64,000 bases of DNA from Thermoplasmata archaeon. GTDB taxonomy: Archaea > Thermoplasmatota > E2 > JACPAO01 > JAHFTW01. The notes below the pieces were generated by a model, which was given only the letters and a program-made list of their open reading frames with translations, was not told the origin of the DNA and ran no database searches. Made by a program: the position numbers and the translations under genes. The stretch is taken from assembly GCA_034667725.1 (NCBI GenBank), contig JAXDQS010000010.1:32001-96000 (forward strand), in the 5' to 3' direction. Positions 4,068-63,778 of this stretch are shown here, piece after piece; position 1 is the stretch's first letter, and every line of letters begins with the position of its first letter.

Positions 4068-4542
4068 CCCAAGGGTCGCCGGCAAGCGACGAGGAACAGC
4101 ATCGGCCCGCGCGGGTCCTCGCTACGCTGCGGGCCGCGCAACCAAAGAGGAGTGGTGTGGCGAGGGAAGCTCGCTGGCGCACCGGGGCTTGGCGGCCGGC
4201 GCCCTGGGCCGGCCGCAGCCCCTGGCATCGGCCCTGCGGGCCGGGCGGGGCCTGCCGGCCCCGCGAACGCGCCTAGGCGGCCCGTGGCCCGCCGTGGGCC
4301 CGGAACGTGGCTGGCCTTGGCTGGGGCTGGGCCCTGCCGCCCGTCCTGGCCTAGACTGGCACTCGCTTGGACCGTGGCTTGGCTCCCCTTCCGCGACCGC
4401 TCCCGGACTCGCCCGCCCCGGACCCTGCGACCGCCCGACCGGCTAGACGGACGACCGGACCCGGCTCCCGCCCGGACCTGCCACGAGCCCACGACGACCC
4501 CCGCCGCCCCGGCGAAGTGAAACGACTGGAACCCCCCGACCG

Positions 4543-4826
4543 CCCGGTTCCAGACCTCCCCCACCTCCACGCAAGGCGGCCCGCCGGCATGGCTGGCGGG
4601 CGTTCTGCCGCGCGACGAACTAGGGCAAGCAACCCATCGGCTTTCCAAGTTGAAGCGCGGGAGCATGGCATCCACGCTTGCGAGCTTTCTCTGGTGTGTC
4701 CGTCGGCCTTTAGTCCCGTCAGAGTATCCGTCCATACGGACCCTTTAGGGGGTCCGTAAGTCGGCACTAAGACGGTCTAAGCCGTCGGTCCCAAGGAACC
4801 CCCAAACCCGGTTCCAAACCTCCCCC
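4543..4826. repeat. 20-bp direct repeat pair (CCCGGTTCCA[G/A]ACCTCCCCC) flanking hairpins
   Basis: 4543-4562 vs 4807-4826, 19/20 identical, each preceded by GGAACCCCC; 9-bp stem TACGGACCC/GGGTCCGTA at 4735-4758. Confidence 0.7.
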
Positions 4827-4866
4827 GCCCGACAAGGAAAACGAAGGTTGCACCAAAGAGAGAGTA

Positions 4867-4905
4867 TGGGACCTCTCGACGTCGGTTCGAATCCGACAAG
4901 GCCCA
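4867..4905 (+). mobile_element. 3' half of a tRNA (probably tRNA-Pro TGG); likely att site of an integrated element
   Basis: TGG-GA-CCTCT-CGAC-GTCGG-TTCGAAT-CCGAC-AAGGCCC-A maps onto tRNA positions 34-73; no GGGCCTT 5' acceptor strand or D-arm found upstream. Confidence 0.7.
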
Positions 4906-37814: not shown

Positions 37815-38010
37815 GGCAAAGCCGCCGACAGAAGGGGCGTATAAGAGGGAGCCGGGCGGGGGGGGGCACCGTAGCCTCCCTGGAGCCGCGCCTTAACGGT
37901 GCGTGGCGGGCCAGAAGGGGTGTGTAGGCGGCCAAAAGGTGGCCAAAAGTGTGCGTGGCGGCCGGTCGGGCGGCCAAAAATGGAGGGAGAGGAGAAGGTG
38001 TGTGCGGGAG

Positions 38011-38640
38011 CTATTCGCTTTGGCTGTCGCATCTGCTTGCGATGGCGGCGGGGGCGGGGCCGTAGTAGCTGAACGCGAGGGTGGCGCGCACTTCCTGGGC
38101 GTAGGCCAGTCCCAGGCTGTCCAGGTGCAGGTGGAAGCGGGTGGTGCCGTTGAGGCCGTCAAAGGACTGGTTCAGGGGCGAGGGGGCGGCCTGCCAAGCC
38201 TCGCCGCTGCCCTCGGAGGCGATAGTTAGGTTCAGGCGCTCGGCAAGCGGCGATTGCGGCGCCCAGGCCGCCTGAAAGGTGCCGTTTAGCATGGTGGCCG
38301 GGCTGCCTTGGGGCCACCACACCACGACGCAAGCCGTCCCCGCGCTGCTCAAGCCTTCCCGCGACAGGGATGGCGCGGAGACTGTCAGGTTGAAGGTGCG
38401 GTTGAAGGACTCCAGGCGCGGCGGAGCGGGCTCCACGACGGGGGCCGGCTCCGGCTCGGGCGGCGGCGGGGCGGCGGCAGGCACCTGGACCGTCGTGGTG
38501 GAGTAGTGGTGATGCTCCGTCTGGGTCTGGGTCTGCGTCATGGTGTGCGTGTGGTCGGGAATTGTCCGACCGGCACAACCCGCCAAGGCAGAGGCGGCGA
38601 GGACGGCGGCGAGGACGACAAGGGTAGGAAGGCGGGGCAT
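38011..38640 (-). CDS. Putative lipoprotein
   Basis: Lipobox ALAGC; Thr/His/Pro-rich linker; beta-rich C-terminal domain. Confidence 0.72.
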   Translation of the reverse strand: MPRLPTLVVLAAVLAASALAGCAGRTIPDHTHTMTQTQTQTEHHHYSTTTVQVPAAAPPPPEPEPAPVVEPAPPRLESFNRTFNLTVSAPSLSREGLSSAGTACVVVWWPQGSPATMLNGTFQAAWAPQSPLAERLNLTIASEGSGEAWQAAPSPLNQSFDGLNGTTRFHLHLDSLGLAYAQEVRATLAFSYYGPAPAAIASRCDSQSE

Positions 38641-38687
38641 GGGGTTTCCTTGCGCGCATGAGGCGCAAGACCGCCGAGAAGGGACCT

Positions 38688-38717
38688 CTACTTACGAACC
38701 GTTTGCGCCTAGTTTGT
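38688..38717 (-). promoter_or_regulatory. 30-bp island promoter/operator motif, copy 1
   Basis: CTACTTACGAACCGTTTGCGCCTAGTTTGT (+ strand), upstream of the 38640 gene. Confidence 0.7.
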
Positions 38718-38723
38718 TGGTCG

Positions 38724-39209
38724 CTAGAAGCCGCAGCCTGCCGGGCTCGGCGCGGGGTCGGGCCAGTTCGGGTCATGCTCCCAATCCAGCTTGAGCGTGA
38801 AGGGAAGCTCCAGGACGGGGCTTCCGGTGTCTTGGATGAACACTTGCCAACCGATAGGTTCCGTCTGGTTCCATTCAAGGCGCAGCGGCGACGGGCCTTC
38901 GACTTCCTCCAGAACCTCAGTGTAGTTGCGCAGAAGCCCGAGGCGAAGGGTTTCCCCCAAGCCGGGCCGGGCATCCCAGGTAGCGACCGCAACCAAGTGC
39001 CGGATGCCCAGGGCGTTGAGGGTCACACAGTTGGGGCCCGTCGAAGTGCCTTGCGTCGTGTCCGTGAATGTTCCGTTCTGCCAGTAGGCGCCATGCTGTA
39101 GTTGCGGCTCGGCAGGCGGCTCCGTCGTGCTTGGGCTCAACGTGTCGGCGGGTGCGCCGCAACCGGCCAATGCGAGAAGGACGACGGCGAGAGTGGCGGC
39201 GGGCATCAT
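38724..39209 (-). CDS. Putative lipoprotein (similar to 38011-38640)
   Basis: Lipobox ALAGC; CV...A.W....L.E.L.L...PSPL pattern shared with the neighbour. Confidence 0.72.
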   Translation of the reverse strand: MMPAATLAVVLLALAGCGAPADTLSPSTTEPPAEPQLQHGAYWQNGTFTDTTQGTSTGPNCVTLNALGIRHLVAVATWDARPGLGETLRLGLLRNYTEVLEEVEGPSPLRLEWNQTEPIGWQVFIQDTGSPVLELPFTLKLDWEHDPNWPDPAPSPAGCGF

Positions 39210-39258
39210 GGTCGGCGCTCCAGGTTGGAAGGAGAGGAAAAGGGTTGGCGCTTGGCGT

Positions 39259-39942
39259 CTAAGCGAAGTGCATGACGATGCTGATGAGCTTGCCTTGGCC
39301 GTAGGGGTCGGCGCACTCGACCACCACATCGCCATCCTTGGCATCGGCGTCGGCGCCGCAGCGGCCCTCGCCGTCGCCGGGCAGGCCCAGTTCTTCGCAG
39401 TGGCCGGCGTTGGTTCCCGCGGCTCCGACGCTACTGCACCACACAACCTCATTGTCGGGGCGACCGTCGGCGTTCTCGTCCTTGGTGTTGGTGCCGCAGG
39501 TCATCGTGCCCTTGACACTGCCAGGGACGTTTTCGTCCACGGTGATGTCCCAGTTGCCGCCGTCCTCGACGCAGGCGTCCTCGGCCATGACCCTGCATCC
39601 GGTCAGGGTGCAAAAGCCGTTCACGGCGCCGCTGATGCCGCAGACGCTTCCAGTTGCGACCGGCGGTGTGCTGGCTTCGGCGGAAGGCTCCGGGCCGGAG
39701 AGCGCGGTCAAGCGGAAGTCGTCGAGGATGCGCTCGACTTGGCCGGGCAGCGACAGGGCGACGGCCGTGAGTTCTCCGTTCAGAGACACTTCTTGGCCGC
39801 TCACAAAGATGATGGGCGTGCAGGCGACCTGGGGCACGGGCACACTCTGGGCAGGCATGGCGGCGAAGGTCGCTGCCAGCAGCACGGCGGCACAGGTCAA
39901 GGCGGTCAAGTGCGGGCGTTGGGGGGATGGGGGTAGGTCCAT
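39259..39942 (-). CDS. Secreted Cys-rich hypothetical protein
   Basis: Signal-like segment then about 10 Cys; alternative start at 40038. Confidence 0.65.
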   Translation of the reverse strand: MDLPPSPQRPHLTALTCAAVLLAATFAAMPAQSVPVPQVACTPIIFVSGQEVSLNGELTAVALSLPGQVERILDDFRLTALSGPEPSAEASTPPVATGSVCGISGAVNGFCTLTGCRVMAEDACVEDGGNWDITVDENVPGSVKGTMTCGTNTKDENADGRPDNEVVWCSSVGAAGTNAGHCEELGLPGDGEGRCGADADAKDGDVVVECADPYGQGKLISIVMHFA

Positions 39943-40063
39943 GGTCTTGCTTCCTGGGTGCGCATGGACCGCCACAAGGACCGACAACCGAGTGTTGGTG
40001 AACACGGGGGAGAGAGGCAAAGGGGCGTGGCGGCCCATGCGCAACGGCAAGAAGCGCAGGCGC

Positions 40064-40093
40064 CTACTTACGAACCGTTTGCGTCGGGTTTGT
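40064..40093 (-). promoter_or_regulatory. 30-bp island promoter/operator motif, copy 2
   Basis: CTACTTACGAACCGTTTGCGTCGGGTTTGT; first 20 nt identical to copy 1. Confidence 0.7.
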
Positions 40094-40098
40094 AGGGT

Positions 40099-40590
40099 TC
40101 AAATCCGCTCCCGCATGAAGGCCTCAACCGTCAGCACCCGCACCAAATCCTGGCCCGGAGGCCCGATTGGTTGAGTCATGCGCACCAAGGACTCGGCCCG
40201 ATAGACGATATGATGCGCTTCGTTCCAAACGTGCTGCTCAGGCAGGCATTTCGTTGGGTCGTAGATGCAGGCGATGATATCCTCAAGAGCTTCGCAAAGA
40301 CCTTGGAATTGCCAGCCGAGCGGCGAAGCCATGTCCACTGCGGCGTAGGGGATTCCGATGAACTCCTTGACCCCGTAATAGGGAGTATCATCATGCTCCT
40401 GCACCGGCAGGAGTGGGAAAACGCCTCCTGGGCTGTCAGGCAATGGGGTGAAGGCGGGTGCGTAGCGGCCCCCCATCGAGAACGCGCAAACGGGCTGCAT
40501 GGGGTCCGGTTCGGCTTGGACTGGAACGGTGGCAGCCAGCAGGGCGGCGAGGGCGATTGCAAGTAGGGCTTTCTGCATAGGTTCACTCAC
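40099..40590 (-). CDS. Secreted hypothetical protein
   Basis: Signal peptide MQKALLAIALAALLAATVPVQA; overlaps the upstream stop. Confidence 0.65.
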   Translation of the reverse strand: MSEPMQKALLAIALAALLAATVPVQAEPDPMQPVCAFSMGGRYAPAFTPLPDSPGGVFPLLPVQEHDDTPYYGVKEFIGIPYAAVDMASPLGWQFQGLCEALEDIIACIYDPTKCLPEQHVWNEAHHIVYRAESLVRMTQPIGPPGQDLVRVLTVEAFMRERI

Positions 40591-41369
40591 GTTTGGGGAC
40601 CGAAGGTCCAGGTTTCCTGGACGACAGATTTGGCGGTGTCAAGTGGGACCGGCGGGGGCGCTATGGCGAGGGTCGGAACCAGCCCTTCGCCGTCGAGGAC
40701 GCCCGCCACGGCACCAATCGGATTCTGTGAAACGGTATGTAGCGCGTCGAACCAAGTGCCGGTCCCACTCTGGTATCGAACTTCCGACTGGAACGGGTCG
40801 TTGCCAGTCGAACCTTCACCCGCGAGTTGGAGGTCGTAGGCGAAGGCGTCGGATTCCAGGCTCAAGGCAGCGAGGGGCGAGGATTCGTCCCAAGCAAACG
40901 TCGCGTTTACAGAAGCAAATCCCCAACTGTTCAGCACCGCAGCCAGGGCCGGGTTGTCGGTGGCGGTTTCGAGGCTGTAAACGTCCGCAAACTCCCCGTC
41001 CACGGCATTGGGCGGACCTACCGGGACGGGCACGGTCATCAGGTGAACGTCGCGCAGGACGGTTGTGTTGTCCAGCGTGATGGACTCACAACTGAACAGG
41101 ACCACCTGAGTCCGGATAGCGGGACCTGTGCCTGCCGTGTAGCCGGGGGGGAGCCGGGCGGCCACGCGTTCGCCGTCTGCCTGGAACGCCCCATAGAAGG
41201 CCGTGCAAGCCAACTGCAGCTCGCGCACCTTGGCCTCGGGGCAGCACGGCGGTGGGGGCAAGGGCTGGTCGGTTGTCGTGGTGTCCGTGGTGCTGGTGGA
41301 GTCGGTTGAATCCGTAGGAGTGCCGCAGCCGGCGACCAGGAGCGCAAGCACAAGCAGGGCGGCCTTCAT
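40587..41369 (-). CDS. Putative lipoprotein
   Basis: MKAALLVLALLVAGC lipobox; Thr/Pro linker; ATGA coupling. Confidence 0.75.
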   Translation of the reverse strand: MKAALLVLALLVAGCGTPTDSTDSTSTTDTTTTDQPLPPPPCCPEAKVRELQLACTAFYGAFQADGERVAARLPPGYTAGTGPAIRTQVVLFSCESITLDNTTVLRDVHLMTVPVPVGPPNAVDGEFADVYSLETATDNPALAAVLNSWGFASVNATFAWDESSPLAALSLESDAFAYDLQLAGEGSTGNDPFQSEVRYQSGTGTWFDALHTVSQNPIGAVAGVLDGEGLVPTLAIAPPPVPLDTAKSVVQETWTFGPQT

Positions 41370-42883
41370 GCGGATGCCTCGGCGGGCAAGTTCTGGGGCA
41401 TTGCGGAGGGACCTGAGGGGCGGTAGTAGAGGCTTGTGCGGCCCTTCCGGCGGCGTCCGACTAGGAGGCCTGCGTCCACTAGGGCGCGGGCGTGGAAGGA
41501 GAATAGTTGTTGGGAGACTTCCAAGCCGCGTTCTTGCAGCTTGGCCCGCACCCGGTCGCCTTCGATGCCGCTGCCCTCGGGAATGGTGGCGTAGATGGCT
41601 CGGCGGACGGGATGGGCAAGGTAGGCTTGGGGGTCGGCGCTGGCGCCCGCCAAAGCATAGTAGCGCAGGCCGCGCACGGCGAAGTGGCGAACGTGGTGGC
41701 CGCGGCGCAGGATGCCAAGGTGGAACATGGCCAGTTGCCTGCTTAGGCCCAAGTGCAGGGCAAGGTCCTTGGCGGTCTGGGGGCCAAGGGCCAAGTGTTG
41801 GAGCATGGCCCGCCGCAAGGGGTTAGCCAGCGGTTCGGCGCGGTTGAGGCCCGCCAGGAGGTTGGGCAGGAACCGGACGGCGACTAGCAGCAGGGCCGCG
41901 GCTCCCGCGACGGTTCCCGTAGCCACGACAAGACTGGATGCTGAGATGACGGCCACGCCGTCCGCCGCCAGTTTGACCGCTTCCCCCGTCATGCTCCAAG
42001 TGCTTCCTTGCGCCGTTGCGTCGGAGCGCAGCCGGAACGCTCCCGTGGCCTCCAGGAGCGCCGCGTCGGGATTGACGTAGGCCAAGGCAGGTCCGGAGGG
42101 GTTCTTGACCCCATGAAGCTGCACCGTGCCGCTCAGGTCCGCCTCCAAGGATTCGGCGTAGATGCGCCAGCCGTCGCCCGAGAGCGGCGCGGCGACAAGC
42201 ACACCCTGGATGGCAAGGTAGCGGTGGACTTGGCCGTGCTGCCCTACGGTTCCGAACGGGTCGCCTGCATCGGTGTAGGTGGTCGTGGCTTCGATGCGGC
42301 GGGCGCCCAGGGTTGCCGTGCCGCCGTGGAACAGAACGGTCATGGCTTGCTCAGGCAGGGTTGCGTTGAGGGTGCCGGACAAGCGCAGGGCGGTTGCGTC
42401 GATGCGGCTGGAATGGCCCTCGAAGCTCGGAGAGAAGCCGGGGTTGGGCGAAAACAGCAAGTGGTTAGGGCGTCCTTCCAGGGTCGTTGCCAACAAGGAT
42501 ACGGCAAGGGTGCCCGAGGCGGGAAAAAGCGCCGTGGTGCCGTTCGGAATGGCGGACAACTGAATGGAACCCGTGTAGGTGAAGTCCTCAAGGGTCCGTT
42601 CCAGGGGCGGGTTCTCTGCCTCGACGCCCGGCAGCGGGCCCGGCGGTTCGGTTTCCGTGGAGCCTGTGCGCGCTTCCAGGACGACGACGCGCAGCGCCGT
42701 CCCTGTCAAGCTCAAGCCTGAGTGAGTGTCCGCCGCGATGGCGGCGGCTGCCGCGTGGGCGTTGAGGCTGCCCGTGATGCGCACCGGCCCGGCGGCCGTG
42801 GCCTCCAGCTCCAGCGGGACCGCCGAAGCCGCCGGCAAGACAACCAGGACAGCCAGGGCGACAAGCCATCGCAACATCGGCAC
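41366..42883 (-). CDS. Membrane-anchored regulator: extracellular domain + TM + tandem ArsR-like wHTH
   Basis: Signal peptide; ~300-aa beta-rich region; TM; NPLRRAMLQHL...DLALHLGLSRQLAMFHLGIL and HPVRRAIY...FSFHARALVDAGLL. Start may be ATG 42877. Confidence 0.8.
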   Translation of the reverse strand: MPMLRWLVALAVLVVLPAASAVPLELEATAAGPVRITGSLNAHAAAAAIAADTHSGLSLTGTALRVVVLEARTGSTETEPPGPLPGVEAENPPLERTLEDFTYTGSIQLSAIPNGTTALFPASGTLAVSLLATTLEGRPNHLLFSPNPGFSPSFEGHSSRIDATALRLSGTLNATLPEQAMTVLFHGGTATLGARRIEATTTYTDAGDPFGTVGQHGQVHRYLAIQGVLVAAPLSGDGWRIYAESLEADLSGTVQLHGVKNPSGPALAYVNPDAALLEATGAFRLRSDATAQGSTWSMTGEAVKLAADGVAVISASSLVVATGTVAGAAALLLVAVRFLPNLLAGLNRAEPLANPLRRAMLQHLALGPQTAKDLALHLGLSRQLAMFHLGILRRGHHVRHFAVRGLRYYALAGASADPQAYLAHPVRRAIYATIPEGSGIEGDRVRAKLQERGLEVSQQLFSFHARALVDAGLLVGRRRKGRTSLYYRPSGPSAMPQNLPAEASA

Positions 42884-42906
42884 CTATGCCGAACGACGCT
42901 CTCCAA

Positions 42907-42936
42907 GTATTTGAGAACCGTTTGCGCCGGGTTTGT
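42907..42936 (-). promoter_or_regulatory. 30-bp island promoter/operator motif, copy 3
   Basis: GTATTTGAGAACCGTTTGCGCCGGGTTTGT, about 30 nt upstream of the wHTH gene. Confidence 0.65.
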
Positions 42937-43587
42937 GAGTCGCTATAACGGGGGCTAGGCGCCGTGCGGCCCCCAAGGCGACTCGCCCGCCCTCGCCCTG
43001 CTCTCCAGTCCAGGCAGGCGTCCCGCCTGCCCTCAGGCGTTCGCCTCGCCTGCCTGCTCGCCTACTTGCCCAGTCCCGCCCGCCTTTCCAACAGGAGAAA
43101 ACGCCTCGCCTCGCCTGCCTCGCCCTAGTGCCTCGCCTTCTTGCCAAACTCGCCCGTCGCCCTCTTGAGCCACAAGAAGGCGGGGAGAGGCGGGGGGAAG
43201 CGGGAAGAAGTGCGGCGCCTCGCCTTCCCCCAGGCGCAAGGTCGCCCGAAGGTCGCGGGAAGCTTCGCCGCGCCTAGAGGGTGAAGGTCGCCCATGCAAA
43301 CCTCCCGGCGACCCTCCCAACAGGAGGGGAAGGTAGGTCTAGCCCTTAGGTGGGGCCCTAGTTTGACTAGTTCCGCGCCGAGCTTGTTTGACAAGACCCT
43401 GGGCACGGTCCCCCACGGTGCCTGTCGTGTTAGGTTCCCCGGCGCCCCATGCAGTAGGCGCCATGCCCCGAAGCGCCCCGCCCCTCCTGTCGCAAGACGC
43501 ATCCCCCGCGACTCCCCGCCCAAGTCCCGATTCGTTTAGGTTGGCCCCGCGCCCCAGCCCGCATCGCATGACCTGGACGGTGCCCCC

Positions 43588-44088
43588 ATGACGAATCGGT
43601 GCCCAACGTGCGGCAAGACGTTCCTGGCGCCGCAAGGCTTGGGCGGCCACATCGCGCACAGCCGCGACCCCATGCACCGGCCCCGGCGCCAGCCGAGCGC
43701 CGCCGTGGCCGCCGCCCACGCCCAGGCCGCCGCGCCCAGCGCGCCCGCGCCCCGGCCCGCCCCAGCCGCGCCAGCCGCCCGGCCGGTGGCGCCCGCGCCG
43801 AGCGTGGCGCGGCCCGCGGTCCAGGCCGCGCCGCAGGCGCCGGCCATGCCGCCCGGCGTGTCGCCCGCCGTGGCGCGGTGGCTCATGCCGGAGACATGGG
43901 CCACGCTTGGCGCGCAGGCGGCCGAGCGGCAAGCGCGGCGGATAGCCGAGCGCGAGGCGGAACGCGCCCGTGCTGCCGAGCGGGCCGCCCAAGAAACCGC
44001 CCGGCGCGCCCAGGCCGAACAAGGCATCTGGGGCCGCTTGCCGGGCTTCGACCCGCGCAAGCCCAAGCCCGGCACGAGGTGGCCCTGA
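43588..44088 (+). CDS. C2H2 zinc-finger protein with Ala/Pro linker and coiled coil
   Basis: CPTCGKTFLAPQGLGGHIAHSRDPMH; AERQARRIAEREAER coiled coil. Confidence 0.75.
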   Translation: MTNRCPTCGKTFLAPQGLGGHIAHSRDPMHRPRRQPSAAVAAAHAQAAAPSAPAPRPAPAAPAARPVAPAPSVARPAVQAAPQAPAMPPGVSPAVARWLMPETWATLGAQAAERQARRIAEREAERARAAERAAQETARRAQAEQGIWGRLPGFDPRKPKPGTRWP

Positions 44089-45062
44089 TGCCCTCGCCAG
44101 GGTCGAACGGTCGTTTCCTGGAACCGGCCATTGGTCGGTCGGTGGCCGCCGCCCACGCTGAACGGTCGGTCGGTGGTCGGTTGCTTGGTCGGCCGGTTCC
44201 CGCTCATCACTTGGTCGGTCGGTCGCATGGTCGGCCGGTTGGTCGGTTGAACGGTCGGCGGGCGTGGTTTCCGGCGCCGCCGACCATTCGACCCTGGCGA
44301 GGGTTGGATGTTCGCACGCCGCGCCATGCCCGCTGCGTTCGCGTTCGTTCGCGTCCGCCAGGAGGTTCTTCCGTGTTCGTTCGGCGTTCGCAAGCCCACG
44401 CGAACACGCGCCCGCGAACGGCGGACCCTGGCCAGGGCATCGTGTTTGGCAAGGCGCAGCCGGGCCTCCAGCCAGCCAAGGGCTCCATTCAGCCAGCCAC
44501 CCGCCGCCAGCCAGCCAACCAATCAATCAGCCCCAGGAAGCCCGGCCAATCAATCGGCCAGCCTGCCAGCCAGCCACCCGGCCAGCCGCGCCCCCCACCC
44601 ACTTCACCAAACAGCCAGCCAGAGGCCGCGCCAAACACCGGACCCTGGCGAGGGTCGCGTGTCCGCACGACGCGCGGACAGCCATGGGGACGCGGACACG
44701 GGGACGCGGACAAGGACAGGGACGCGGCCGGTCGCGGACAAGGACACGGACCAGGAAGGGAAGCGTCCCGGGACGGCCACGCGGACACGGACAGGGACGC
44801 GGACAAGGACAACCCCACCCTCATCGGGGACAAGGCTGCGGACAGCCATGCGGACACGCGACCCTCGCCAGGGTCGCAGCGCCTTATCAACCACCAGTCG
44901 CCGCCGAGTCGTGGAGTCGCTTTTGGCGAACTTGTGGCTTTGTGTCAGAACGAGCCACGCGGGCACCATGCGCCGCAACCGAAAACCGCCCATCGCCTCC
45001 ATGGACGGCTTTCGCTCCCATGCGTGCCTTTCTGCCAGAAGCCGCCAGGGGCGCGGCCATGA
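44088..45062 (+). CDS. Possible low-complexity ORF spanning the array
   Basis: TGATG overlap with the upstream gene and ATGA overlap with the downstream ORF; no recognisable domain; may be non-coding. Confidence 0.3.
   Translation: MPSPGSNGRFLEPAIGRSVAAAHAERSVGGRLLGRPVPAHHLVGRSHGRPVGRLNGRRAWFPAPPTIRPWRGLDVRTPRHARCVRVRSRPPGGSSVFVRRSQAHANTRPRTADPGQGIVFGKAQPGLQPAKGSIQPATRRQPANQSISPRKPGQSIGQPASQPPGQPRPPPTSPNSQPEAAPNTGPWRGSRVRTTRGQPWGRGHGDADKDRDAAGRGQGHGPGREASRDGHADTDRDADKDNPTLIGDKAADSHADTRPSPGSQRLINHQSPPSRGVAFGELVALCQNEPRGHHAPQPKTAHRLHGRLSLPCVPFCQKPPGARP
44089..44875. repeat. Array of five 16-bp palindromic nodes separating four inverted-repeat-closed, simple-repeat-filled cassettes
   Basis: Nodes GACCCT-N4-AGGGTC (some with terminal mismatches) at 44089, 44290, 44424, 44641 and 44860; fillers GGTC, GTTC, GCCA and GGAC. 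Confidence 0.85.
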
Positions 45063-45238
45063 CGTTCCCAACGACGCGGGAGGCCGCGAAGGTCGCCGGG
45101 GTGACCCCCCGTTTCAGGGGGCCTGCTTCAGTGGTGTTTCACTTGACGGGTTCCACGCCCAAGACCAGGAAAACCCAGGAGCCAAGCATGACCGAGGCGC
45201 GACCCGCCCCAGGCTTGGCGAAAGAGGTTCGAGCATGA
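45059..45238 (+). CDS. Small hypothetical protein
   Basis: ATGA coupling at both ends; preceded by GGGCGCGGCCATGA, the same junction as before the transposase. Confidence 0.45.
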   Translation: MTFPTTREAAKVAGVTPRFRGPASVVFHLTGSTPKTRKTQEPSMTEARPAPGLAKEVRA

Positions 45239-45435
45239 CGGAGTGCCCGGTGTGCCGCCGCGTGTTCCGGGACGCGCAGGGATGCGGCGGGCACCTCGCC
45301 ACCGTCGCAGACGACGCCCACAGCGCCCACCGCGCCGCCGTAGCCATCCGGCAGGCATTGACGCAGATGCCGCCGCGCCCCGGCGTGGCGGGGACCTTGC
45401 TGCGCGTCATCTTCGGCTTGAGGGCGCGGCCATGA
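45235..45435 (+). CDS. Small C2H2 zinc-finger protein
   Basis: CPVCRRVFRDAQGCGGHLATVADDAH; ATGA coupled to the transposase. Confidence 0.7.
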   Translation: MTECPVCRRVFRDAQGCGGHLATVADDAHSAHRAAVAIRQALTQMPPRPGVAGTLLRVIFGLRARP

Positions 45436-47015
45436 TTCAGTTTGCCAGCCTGCGCGCCAACGTCAGCCAGCAGGCGCTTGAGATTTTGCAGCACCCCGAC
45501 GCGGTTCTCCATGTCGGCAAGAGCAAGGACGCCAGCGAAATCTACGAGGTGCTAGGCCCCAAGACCGGCGCAACGCGCATCACGGTCTGGAAGGGCCATG
45601 ACGACCTGTGGCATTGCGACGACGACCACCACGGCCATGCCAACCAGGACGCGCCGTGCATCCACCTCATAGTGGCGTTCGTTCGGCTCCAGCACATCGC
45701 CATGCCCAACACCGCCGCCACGGTCCACCGCAAGGGCCGCGACCGCGCCGCCGAGCGCCGCGCATGGCGCCGCATGGCCAAGCGGTTCCCCGAGGTCTTG
45801 CAGGCCATCCTAGAAGCCGGGGTGCCCGCCATCATGGCCACCCCCAAGCCCGAGCCTGAACCGAAGGACAAGCCGGAGCCCGGCGCGGAACCCGACGCCG
45901 CGAAGGAGAAGGGCGGCCACCCCAAGCGCGACCTAAGGGCCGTCGTCCACCAGGCCGTGATGCGCGTCCAGCAGCGCGTGAGCTTCGAGGCCAGCTCCGG
46001 CCTTGACAACCCGTGGGGCGCCTGCTGCGCCTCCACGCTCGAACGCTTCCACGCCGACCCCGACTCGGCGCGCATCATGGAAATGCTCGTGGCGCTCTCA
46101 ACGTGGCCGCTGCATGACCTGGAGCGCCGCCTCGACCCGGACGGAACCGGCTTGTCGCCGCAGCACTTCCGCGCCTACTACGACGAACGGTATCGCCGCA
46201 GCAACGGCAAGAAGAAGCCGAAGAAGTCGAAGCTCGACAAGCTCCCGCCCAACGCCGTCTTGTCCGCCGTGGACCTTCGGCGCCGGGCGCGGGAAGCCGA
46301 GGCCGAGGCGAAGCGCCTCGCGTCCCTCTTGGAGAAACCCAGAAAGCATACCTGGGCCTTTGCGGAGTTCTTGTGGGGCTACGAGTCCACCGCCATCCTG
46401 TCTTACCACTTCCAGGATTCACCCTTCGGTGAGGCGCCGCGCTTTCTTGCCTTGCTGGAGCGGGCGCGCTTCATGCTGGAGGTCAAGGAGATTGGCGGCG
46501 ACAAGGCGTATGATGCCAACTACATCTTCCAATACGCCGACTATCACGGCATCGAGGCGCACATCAAGATACGCGACACCGGCATCCCCACCAACAGCGA
46601 CCACTCGAAGAAGTATCGCAAGGCCGCCATGCTCGGGAGCATCATGGACCCGGAGGGGCATGAGGCGAAGGCGAACCTGCGCAACAACGCCGAAACCGGG
46701 AACGCCGCCTTCAAGGCCCGACTCGGGGACGAAATCTATTGCAAGGGTCGTCGCCGCGATGGCAAGAAGGACGCCACCGCCCTTCAGGTCGAAGTCGGGT
46801 GCATGGTGTTGGCGTGGAACATCCAGCGCCTCATCCACATGGAAGAACGCCACCCCCCGACCGAGGACCGGCCCGGCGTGGTGGTGGACTTCACGGAAGG
46901 CGCCGAGCGCCTACGCTCGCGGCCGTGGCGCAGCCTATCGGACATGGAGCGCGAGCTTCGCAAGCGGTTCCCGCCCAAGGGCGAAGGGGGGGTGCGCGAA
47001 CAATGGAAACCCTAG
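45432..47015 (+). CDS. SWIM-zinc-finger + DDE transposase (IS4/IS5-superfamily-like)
   Basis: WHCDDD...PCIH (SWIM-like); catalytic candidates PDGTG, GDKAYD and RNNAET; C-terminal EVGCMVLAWNI. Confidence 0.8.
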   Translation: MIQFASLRANVSQQALEILQHPDAVLHVGKSKDASEIYEVLGPKTGATRITVWKGHDDLWHCDDDHHGHANQDAPCIHLIVAFVRLQHIAMPNTAATVHRKGRDRAAERRAWRRMAKRFPEVLQAILEAGVPAIMATPKPEPEPKDKPEPGAEPDAAKEKGGHPKRDLRAVVHQAVMRVQQRVSFEASSGLDNPWGACCASTLERFHADPDSARIMEMLVALSTWPLHDLERRLDPDGTGLSPQHFRAYYDERYRRSNGKKKPKKSKLDKLPPNAVLSAVDLRRRAREAEAEAKRLASLLEKPRKHTWAFAEFLWGYESTAILSYHFQDSPFGEAPRFLALLERARFMLEVKEIGGDKAYDANYIFQYADYHGIEAHIKIRDTGIPTNSDHSKKYRKAAMLGSIMDPEGHEAKANLRNNAETGNAAFKARLGDEIYCKGRRRDGKKDATALQVEVGCMVLAWNIQRLIHMEERHPPTEDRPGVVVDFTEGAERLRSRPWRSLSDMERELRKRFPPKGEGGVREQWKP

Positions 47016-47905
47016 ACCCGAGCCGCCTTCATCGCCGCGTCCTTGCCGGGGCGCGGTGCATCCTCGCCGCCTCGGGTGTTGAGCGCGTGGACCCGGACCA
47101 TTACCGGGTCGCCGGGGCGCGGCCGGGAGCGGAACCGGTGCGCGTCTATCGCAGGGGCGGAACGTGGCGGTGCAGCAGCGACCGCCGCCACCACGCGGCG
47201 CAGCCGTGCGCACACATCCTGGCGGTCTTGGAGGTCGTGGGCGCCGTGCGCCTTCCGGCCACCGTGAGCCCCATTGCGGAATCGGCGCGGCGGGACGCCT
47301 TGGAGGCCGAAGCGGCGCGCCTCTTGCCGGAACGCCTGCCTGGGGTCTTGGCGCGTATGCTCGACGCCAGCCCCGCCGCGGCGCCACAGGCGCCGGGCAA
47401 GGGGCGCCCCAGGTGCAGCCCTATCGCGGTGGCGCATCAGGCCGTCATGCGCGCCGCCACGCGGGGCACCCTCAAGTCGGCGGGAGCCTATGCGCCTGTG
47501 AGCCGGGCCACCGTGCGCCGGTTCCTGGCGGAAGGCAAGACCGACGCGCTCCTGCGCGCCATGAAGGATTGGACCTTGGCCGCCGCCCGGCCCCAGGACG
47601 CCACCCGCCCCGACGCCCTCAACCGGGGCGCCTTGGCGTTCTCGACGCCCCTCGGCCCGCTCTTGTTCCTGGCGTCGTGGACGCCAACGTATGGGCTTCT
47701 TGCGCGCCTGGACCCCATGCCCTCGGAGCCGGTCATCGAGGCGCCCGGCGCCGAGGAAGCGGCCCGGCGCTTCACGGCGCTTCTGGGCGCGGAGCTTGTG
47801 AGCCGCGACCCGGCGGCCTTGGCGAATGAGGCCCTTTGCGCGGCCCTTGCCTGGAACCTTGCCCGGCTTGTCGTGGTGGACCTGGAACGCGGCGGGACCG
47901 CGTAG
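47003..47905 (+). CDS. Paralogue of the SWIM-DDE transposase lacking the catalytic core
   Basis: WRCSSD...PCAH, GRP...HQAVMR and NEALCAALAWNL match the upstream protein; no DGTG or DKAY motifs; open frame of 300 aa. Confidence 0.72.
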   Translation: METLDPSRLHRRVLAGARCILAASGVERVDPDHYRVAGARPGAEPVRVYRRGGTWRCSSDRRHHAAQPCAHILAVLEVVGAVRLPATVSPIAESARRDALEAEAARLLPERLPGVLARMLDASPAAAPQAPGKGRPRCSPIAVAHQAVMRAATRGTLKSAGAYAPVSRATVRRFLAEGKTDALLRAMKDWTLAAARPQDATRPDALNRGALAFSTPLGPLLFLASWTPTYGLLARLDPMPSEPVIEAPGAEEAARRFTALLGAELVSRDPAALANEALCAALAWNLARLVVVDLERGGTA

Positions 47906-48154
47906 TTTCGCCTGCCTGCGAAACGGTCAAGCGGGGTGGATGCGTGGTCGGCTTGCCCGCCCCGATGGGACGGGCAGGGGGCCACGCCCCCTAACCGCCA
48001 ACGGTCGCGGAGTTTGGCGCCCCAGGCATCCGGCCTGGAAGCGCCCGCGACGGCGGCCCGGCCGACCACTTCCGGCAACCCGGAAATGGTGCAGGCAGGC
48101 CGTCGTCGTGGTGTAGTTCCCGCGTAGCCCGACCATCGAAAAAGAACGGCTTGG

Positions 48155-48517
48155 ATGGGGCGCGACCTTGGACCCGGCCCACCGGAAGGAAGGGGGGTCG
48201 GGACCAAGGAGGACCCTAAGACGAACCCCATTCGCAACCCCAAGCCTGAATCTCGAACGTCCTGCCAGGAGGATTCCTGGCGCTTTTTGGCCTGCGGCAG
48301 CAGCCTCGCCGCCTTGCTGGCCAGCCTTGCAACGTGGCTTCCGGTGCCGGTCGCCGCGAAGGCGCTGCTTTGGACGGCGTTCGCCGCCGTCCTGGTGCTA
48401 GTCGTTGCTTGCTTCGCCCTAGTCGGCTTGTGCGTCATGCGGCAGGAAATCCTCCGCTTGACCCACCGTGCAAGGGCGGCCAAAAGTGTGCGTGGCGACC
48501 CTCCGAGGTGTGCGTGA
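48155..48517 (+). CDS. Possible 2-TM membrane protein crossing the island's right repeat
   Basis: Two hydrophobic helices; start uncertain. Confidence 0.4.
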
Positions 48518-48653
48518 GCGGCCACAAGCGGGCGTGGGGGGCCAGAAGTCCCTAGCTATGCACCGAAGCTACGGTGCCGCCGGGCGGGGGCCGCGACCAT
48601 CGTTCGACGCCCGTCCGAGCGCCCTTATAGCCCACAAGGTGGGATGGGCACCC

Positions 48654-59120: not shown

Positions 59121-63778
<4,658 letters not shown>

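Follow-up and report, generated by a model that had tools for sequence, protein, structure and literature searches.

Short motif repeats that are specific to one mobile element, and that diverge between related elements, are familiar from plasmid iterons, operator arrays and centromere-like clusters. REP/BIME sequences, which occur with RAYT, a cognate HUH (Y1) transposase, are mosaics of palindromic non-coding units present in many dispersed copies. The R64 shufflon consists of segments that code for alternative protein ends and occur in mixed orientations in a population, next to the gene of the tyrosine recombinase Rci; it is built around sfx sites, which are asymmetric and 31 bp long, with 12-bp arms and a 7-bp core, and of which only the core and the right arm are conserved (PMC11852207). 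In VIPR, the vrRNA arrays are composed of alternating GGY/NN units with a 5-nt period and are adjacent to a Vipr (RAMP) gene (10.64898/2026.04.26.720920). Finally, template switching is known to yield homogenised arms, inverted spacers and multi-base substitutions (PMC8604942). Here we describe an array of four motif-filled cassettes separated by palindromic nodes, found in a 64,000-nt stretch of DNA from a Thermoplasmatota archaeon (hereafter the window). The module architecture of this array is real, family-wide and undescribed, and belongs to an archaeal mobilome; a literature search, which for the most part reached journals other than subscription ones, found no published description of the architecture or of the element family.

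The array lies between the two zinc-finger genes of a 10.7-kb element (37865-48578), which is an IS4/IS5-type DDE cargo transposon, as it possesses a DDE triad with an RNase H fold, terminal repeats and a target-site duplication. The transposase has 527 residues, PF01609 was found in its homologues, and its structural model (pLDDT 88) gave Tn5 as the best fold match (E 3e-3). The terminal inverted repeat of 11 bp is perfect and is accompanied by a 12-bp target-site duplication. As the flanking gene gave no match when an empty target site was sought in relatives, the ends of the carrier are placed by the repeat and the duplication. The array is 6.2 and 3.7 kb away from these ends, which differ from the nodes, and the array motifs differ from the terminal repeat; a separate repeat, GGCCAAAA, occurs near the carrier ends. 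Among the proteins neighbouring the array, zinc fingers and HTH were the only Pfam matches, and the transposase was the only one folded. No recombinase gene adjoins the array or lies within the carrier: the sole PF00589 match is weak and about 48 kb off, outside the carrier, and the genome has one serine recombinase. No initiator gene is present at the array, the cdc6 genes being located elsewhere in the genome. Two small features were noticed besides. A 59-codon frame at 45059-45238 starts like an excisionase-type helix-turn-helix, with no Pfam match and a poor codon score, and a miniature element of about 90 bp (G000 C10:274677-274765) shares the terminal repeat of the transposon.

An earlier note, made from the sequence of the window, had described five nodes delimiting four cassettes, and the positions, the central four bases and the node-to-node spacers (185, 118, 201 and 203 nt) were all reproduced (Table 1). 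A central GC is common to the five nodes, and nodes 1 and 3 do form an inverted pair, while the 16-bp consensus proposed for all of them is fully matched by nodes 4 and 5 only. The 12-bp node core, CCCT-(CGCC/GGCG/GGCC)-AGGG, has five copies in the 2.32-Mb genome, all within the array, contrary to the REP-like scatter over the genome that the note had named as evidence against its own reading. Exact ACCCT-N4-AGGGT palindromes number three in the genome, again all in the array, and are also found in four patches of other genomes, so that a node may be regarded as two palindromically paired copies of a single motif class.

The private inverted repeat claimed for each cassette was recovered for cassette 1 (44091-44113/44281-44303, 96% of 23 bp) and cassette 4 (44641-44667/44849-44875, 27 of 27 bp), whereas those of cassettes 2 and 3 reach just 6-9 bp past the node. 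Four different polar fillers were likewise confirmed, with forward/reverse counts of 13/1 for GGTC, 8/2 for GTTC, 16/1 for GCCA and 19/2 for GGAC, none of which was matched in 2000 dinucleotide shuffles; outside the array, the C12 paralogue described below is the one place in the genome with comparable densities. Nevertheless, cassette 4 has a register of 6 nt rather than 4 nt, and the inventory of four motifs was incomplete, as a fifth patch with 14 copies of GCCT against 3.8 expected had been overlooked. The fillers echo their own terminal repeats, as had been proposed: inward from any node, the half-node is followed by 4 nt and then by a single copy of the cassette motif (GGTCG, GTTCG, GTTTG or GTCCG), and the cassette is filled with repeats of that motif on one strand. 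Cassettes 1 and 2 are polarised in one direction, and cassettes 3 and 4 in the opposite one. The motifs are spaced by 4, 6, 8 or 12 nt and helical phasing is absent, except in one C1 cassette; this non-phased spacing fits slippage better than spaced operators. The G+C content of the array is 0.70, with no AT-rich segment, and scans of the window with Rfam and for tRNAs found no match.

Table 1. Positions of the array, its carrier transposon and neighbouring features in the window.
Feature	Position	Strand	Remark
Left target-site duplication, 12 bp	37851..37862	+	second copy at 48579-48590
Left terminal inverted repeat GGCACCGTAGC	37865..37875	+	inverted copy at 48568-48578
Cargo: predicted exported proteins and long ArsR/HTH_20 protein	38011..42883	-	related cargo in C1 and C12 elements
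Fifth motif patch, CGCCT/AGGCG	about 42975..43255	+	exact CAACAGGAG box at 43089
Two further boxes	43318..43492	.	exact at 43318 (+); one-mismatch at 43484 (-), 51 bp before promoter motif
Family promoter-like motif (putative promoter)	43535..43544	+	about 30 nt before start codon in many relatives
Zinc-finger gene 1	43588..44088	+	C2H2-like finger, Pro/Ala linker
Node 1, centre CGCC	44089..44104	.	core search
Cassette 1, GGTC filler	44105..44289	-	box-like core 44114-44121 (-); polarity relative to GGAC cassette opposite to C1/C12
Node 2, centre GGCG	44290..44305	.	core search
Cassette 2, GTTC filler	44306..44423	-	box-like core 44358-44365 (+)
Node 3, symmetric centre GGCC	44424..44439	.	inverted partner of node 1
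Cassette 3, GCCA filler	44440..44640	+	cores 44533-44540 and 44591-44605; homologue of a C12 cassette
Node 4, centre GGCG	44641..44656	.	core search
Cassette 4, GGAC filler, 6-nt register	44657..44859	+	cores 44751-44763 and 44812-44822; homologue of two C12 cassettes
Node 5, centre CGCC	44860..44875	.	core search
Zinc-finger gene 2, short	45235..45435	+	
SWIM-like finger and IS4/IS5-type DDE transposase	45432..47015	+	invariant D237, D357, E421
Shorter transposase paralogue	47003..47905	+	
Right terminal inverted repeat (48568-48578) and right target-site duplication (48579-48590)	48568..48590	-	

Homologous cassettes were found in two more elements of the same genome, C1 and C12, in which their order and polarity differ. 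C1 (about 265300-264930, minus strand) shows the same layout before a transposase of 61% identity; the end of the zinc-finger gene is followed by a GTTC/GAAC piece, a node, a CCCTCAG cassette with a period of 22-23 bp, a GGACA piece, a GACC piece and a degenerate node. C12 is an 8.7-kb element with terminal repeats of its own and no transposase; its array (59180-60400) occupies the left end and consists of CCGAG, GCGGAC, GACC, GCCA and GGGACA cassettes. Cassettes 3 and 4 are homologous to C12 cassettes beyond their 5-mer composition (p<=0.01), and a comparison of cassette 4 with its C12 counterpart shows a joint change of terminal motif and filler, GCGGAC to GGGGAC. In C1 as in C12 the GACC and GGAC pieces point the same way, and in this array they are opposed; the alignment of the GACC-type patch with C1 and C12 scored 58 against 34 and 68 against 35.5 for the flipped form. 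Furthermore, in C12 the GACC cassette is directly followed by a node, GCCA, a node and GGGACA, which is the order of this array once cassettes 1 and 2 are flipped between nodes 1 and 3. On the other hand, cassette 1 resembles the C1 and C12 pieces in composition only, and the left junction discriminates neither orientation (69 against 65). Altogether, these comparisons give moderate evidence that cassettes were flipped or reordered in the past. Near the C1 array, four or five palindromic repeats of about 70 bp, bearing inverted copies of GGCCAAAA, the motif near the element ends, lie between the zinc-finger gene and the transposase (L048:7830-8100; C1:263830-264100). Elsewhere in the window, at 4150-4905, a non-coding patchwork of GGCC, CGACC and CCGT motifs with a node-like palindrome at 4739 adjoins a tRNA-like 3' end, at the edge of a probable integrated element with C12-like cargo.

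In other genomes, about 15 related elements carry a single patch with its own motif (GCACCCT, AGTTC, GAGCG, CTCGC, CCTAGG, GACCC and others) near a zinc-finger or transposase gene. The array does have counterparts beside homologues of the transposase, where the earlier note suggested looking, the one at C1 among them; several related transposase loci have no patch. The related arrays were surfaced solely by searches with the transposase, the zinc finger, the node and the box; the exact array DNA gave only short matches and no homologue among 37 relatives, while viral contigs yielded 23 single matches to the node pattern, no arrays and no transposase relative. A 1.7-kb array in another genus (G017) consists of GACCCC, GAACCCT, GGGTACCC and GAGAC cassettes with one exact node, and adjoins type I restriction genes with no transposase nearby; few intact nodes are found in it or in C12. 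One G017 cassette is homologous over about 290 nt, with frame-breaking indels, to a translated zinc-finger linker of the same genome, and in about six positions ACCC has become GGGTACCC. Three elements share a small conserved gene, in which GGT accounts for 25 of 58 glycine codons in the two homologues from GCACCCT elements and for 1 of 28 in the homologue from an element with another motif (p=1e-4), a test that is not independent since the two GGT-rich homologues are closely related. The linker homology and the GGT bias imply that the motif is a DNA-level feature spreading into coding sequence. This entry into neighbouring genes proceeds partly via synonymous codons and leaves the frame of conserved genes unbroken; both selection and template switching could cause it. 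Patches this dense were found just in mobile elements or islands.

Two further readings of the patches were discarded. Restriction-site decoys were rejected on the ground that the same motif adjoins different restriction systems. GAAC/GTTC and GGCC are known phosphorothioate sites, but arrays of such sites are a misfit for most motifs; a search for DndE gave no match and, since its control gave none either, has no bearing on this reading. Among the related elements we also noticed a small basic protein that combines two similar helical repeats with Lys/Gly-rich linkers, a candidate DNA-binding protein with no Pfam match and no usable Atlas match (L135:5350-6006, L136:4964-5350 and L054). At several loci (L131, L133, L094, L086, L134 and L056/L101) the same SWIM-DDE transposase ends a provirus-like block with a weak match to a PM2-type capsid (PF25513) and a packaging-type ATPase, possibly a transposable double-jelly-roll virus family of Thermoplasmatota.

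Most of the single patches share a 9-bp box, CAACAGGAG. There are 18 exact copies in 10.6 kb of patches against 0.19 expected, an enrichment that is overstated because the patch borders were drawn by eye after inspection; the remaining 188 kb of the same loci hold three exact copies, and no genome-wide enrichment was found. Within a module, the same-strand motif copies surround one or two such shared boxes. Copies of the box occur on both strands, in many cases 42-210 bp ahead of the family promoter motif; in the window, two are exact and one is a near copy (43089-43492). No exact box occurs in the four cassettes, which keep CAGGA(A/G) cores, accompanied in cassettes 3 and 4 by a CCCCACCC run. 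In host DNA, the box precedes by a short distance an origin-recognition-like box that lies upstream of MCM; this holds for the present genome and for two of five relatives, with a degenerate copy in a third. One relative has the box upstream of cdc6, and another has it flanked by two origin-recognition-like boxes. Combined with a full origin box, it was detected in 4 of 32 family genomes, in none of 165 more distant genomes and in none of the controls. The sequence of the box includes a Shine-Dalgarno-like word, and some host genes have it ahead of their start codon; the possibility that it is itself the origin-recognition box was rejected. A palindromic box pair with two overlapping inverted origin-recognition-like boxes was seen upstream of a small RHH-type gene (G000 C10:293770-293840), and two facing origin-recognition-like boxes near the GC-skew maximum of C2 (G000 C2:119983 and 121908) mark a candidate chromosomal origin.

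How should these modules be understood? The array is non-coding by codon statistics: seven frames gave codon scores between -0.28 and -0.60, where the transposase scores +0.28 and the zinc-finger genes about 0, and their third-position G+C is 0.67-0.82 against 0.86-0.91 in the genes of the carrier. An open frame at 44088-45062 with stop/start overlaps might encode a 324-residue disordered protein coupled to the zinc-finger genes, and in G017 and G029 a patch does sit in a translated linker, but this proposal is barely credible, since the frame (codon score -0.43, third-position G+C 0.69) is shut in the flipped form and has no Pfam match, on which grounds we rejected it, and indels between homologous cassettes break the frame. 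A structured RNA or single-stranded DNA scaffold with four closed loops presenting different motifs, an idea already raised in the earlier note, gains from the folding of both strands, which beats 20 of 20 shuffles, and from two compensatory pairs in the closing stem of cassette 4. Yet the gain over shuffles is modest (z -2.7 and -2.6), and box and motifs alike occur in both orientations, in the case of the box relative to the direction of transcription, so that the case for an RNA is weak; moreover, no Rfam match exists, the net covariation term is unfavourable (+0.89, three sequences) and coding linkers contain homologous modules. We consider such a scaffold very improbable. The note had also suggested an origin or partition locus, or classes of binding sites, of which the binding sites have become the best-supported direction. 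An origin or partition locus of the element, recruiting host Orc1/Cdc6 and MCM, would agree with the box adjoining origin-recognition boxes at cdc6, MCM and AT-rich origin-like loci of relatives, with the polar short repeats and the two-turn period of one cassette, and with the occurrence of the same transposase family in double-jelly-roll proviruses that have no recognised replication gene; it appears quite improbable nonetheless, as the cassettes score at most 1.8 with the origin-recognition matrix against 15.3-23.8 for true boxes, neither an AT-rich segment nor an initiator gene accompanies the array, and just 3 of 30 origin-like sites in five relatives have the box nearby.

Active site-specific shuffling, with inversion and excision of cassettes at the nodes by the DDE pair or by a recombinase, perhaps a serine enzyme acting on the central GC, would account for the reversed polarity of the GACC-type patch, the different cassette orders at three loci and the GC common to all nodes in a genome with one serine recombinase. 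The shufflon- or V(D)J-like cassettes that the earlier note attributed to the DDE enzyme thus retain the moderate evidence of past flipping, whereas the shufflon features tested are absent and the nodes are not the transposon ends. We regard active shuffling as distinctly unlikely, given nodes that are symmetric (6-4-6) unlike sfx sites, a carrier with no recombinase gene, the C12 and G017 arrays standing away from any transposase with few intact nodes, the merely compositional resemblance of cassette 1, a left junction neutral on orientation and no varied protein output. It is also conceivable that the array is a neutral product. Template switching at short inverted repeats would bring the arms to a perfect match, spread the arm motif into the interior and invert spacers, after which slippage would multiply 4-6-nt units, all in mobile-element DNA that is free of constraint. 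The near-perfect arms, fillers that are each the complement of their own arm, the tandem 4- and 6-nt spacing, repeated conversion into palindromes and the abundance of fold-back repeats in the genome all agree with such a process, known to yield changes of this kind. This explains the shapes well but the conserved box poorly: the box is retained across two families while the fillers turn over, patches this dense were found only in mobile elements or islands, and conserved genes take up the motifs with their frame intact. A neutral origin is thus unlikely, albeit not markedly so.

We tentatively favour, with somewhat less than even confidence, a reading from sequence comparison in which the array is a set of operator- or iteron-like modules on which proteins dock, and which short-homology events at the nodes flip or swap now and then. 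The motif would be an element-specific operator or iteron for a DNA-binding protein encoded by the element, the candidates being the transposase, its short paralogue, the zinc-finger protein and the small basic protein of some elements, and the shared box would bind a host factor that also acts at the MCM promoter. Motif and box might jointly control expression, immunity or maintenance of the element, and multi-cassette arrays would gather modules from several elements. The nodes may be palindromic half-site pairs that double as breakpoints for occasional inversion or exchange, through short-homology recombination or template switching and with no dedicated recombinase. Docking modules are supported by the non-coding frames, the C12 homology with its joint motif change, the G017 linker homology, the patches with other motifs in related elements, the box enrichment, the box near MCM and together with full origin boxes, the GGT bias and the ACCCT-N4-AGGGT palindromes of other patches. 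They are opposed by the mostly unphased motif spacing, by the lack of the exact box in the four cassettes and of a patch at several transposase loci, and by the Shine-Dalgarno-like word in the box. A more far-reaching but unlikely possibility is that the mobile elements of this order use an undescribed modular address code, in which an exchangeable cassette combines a fixed box for a host factor with a freely re-writable motif of 4-8 bp. With concerted rewriting by a directed process and shuffling at the nodes, each element would have an identity of its own, and arrays could read or sequester the proteins of competing elements. If the modules bind proteins, a mobile-element family has evolved many orthogonal DNA-binding specificities on one scaffold, perhaps with a link to a factor of host replication or the cell cycle, in an archaeal order whose mobilome is almost undescribed; if they are neutral, they still document, with unusual clarity, template switching that recurred in nature. 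None of these readings accounts for the way in which one motif is replaced in concert throughout a cassette and in the genes nearby.

Comparison with known systems upholds the earlier view that the array is not a CRISPR, an integron or a simple VNTR. Its 16-bp nodes in mixed orientation and low-complexity spacers of 118-203 nt, with no Rfam match, differ from a CRISPR array of direct repeats with unique spacers of about 30-40 nt, and its cassettes are non-coding in a carrier with no tyrosine recombinase, unlike integron cassettes, which bear genes and stand next to an IntI integrase. VIPR arrays likewise combine short-motif repeats, intergenic positions and mobile elements, but GGY/NN runs reach at most three units here (four in any patch tested) and Pfam recognised no RAMP-family gene among the neighbours. 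The likeness to REP/BIME is a mosaic of palindromic non-coding units, whereas the present nodes are unique to the locus and the units are 120-200 bp long and motif-filled; apart from the array, contigs C3, C6, C7 and C10 of G000 contain a REP-like family of GATTC and ACAGA words, with more than 100 copies of its core, whose unit of several direct copies and one inverted copy is loosely cassette-like. As in the R64 shufflon, four segments lie between repeated sites with signs of past inversion, but the segments are non-coding, the nodes symmetric and a tyrosine recombinase is not adjacent. With regard to archaeal oriC (PMC4153887), which has origin-recognition boxes, an AT-rich unwinding segment and an adjacent orc1/cdc6 gene, the array has a 9-bp box in common with some host sites that bear origin-recognition boxes, but none of these three features itself. 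The subterminal repeats of hAT and MULE elements (PMC4890040, PMC5499845) are also short motifs in a zinc-finger-encoding DDE element, but they lie within a few hundred bases of the ends rather than kilobases away, and the motifs here are unlike the terminal repeat; the C12 array, in contrast, starts near the left end of its element. Iteron, operator and centromere-like clusters resemble the array in their element-specific short repeats, and the C1 cassette adds a two-turn period, but the motifs here are 4-8 bp, irregular and polar with one inverted copy, several classes are chained, and no Rep or ParB-type gene was found. All in all, it is with iteron, operator or subterminal-repeat clusters that the array would, by analogy, have most in common in the way it works.
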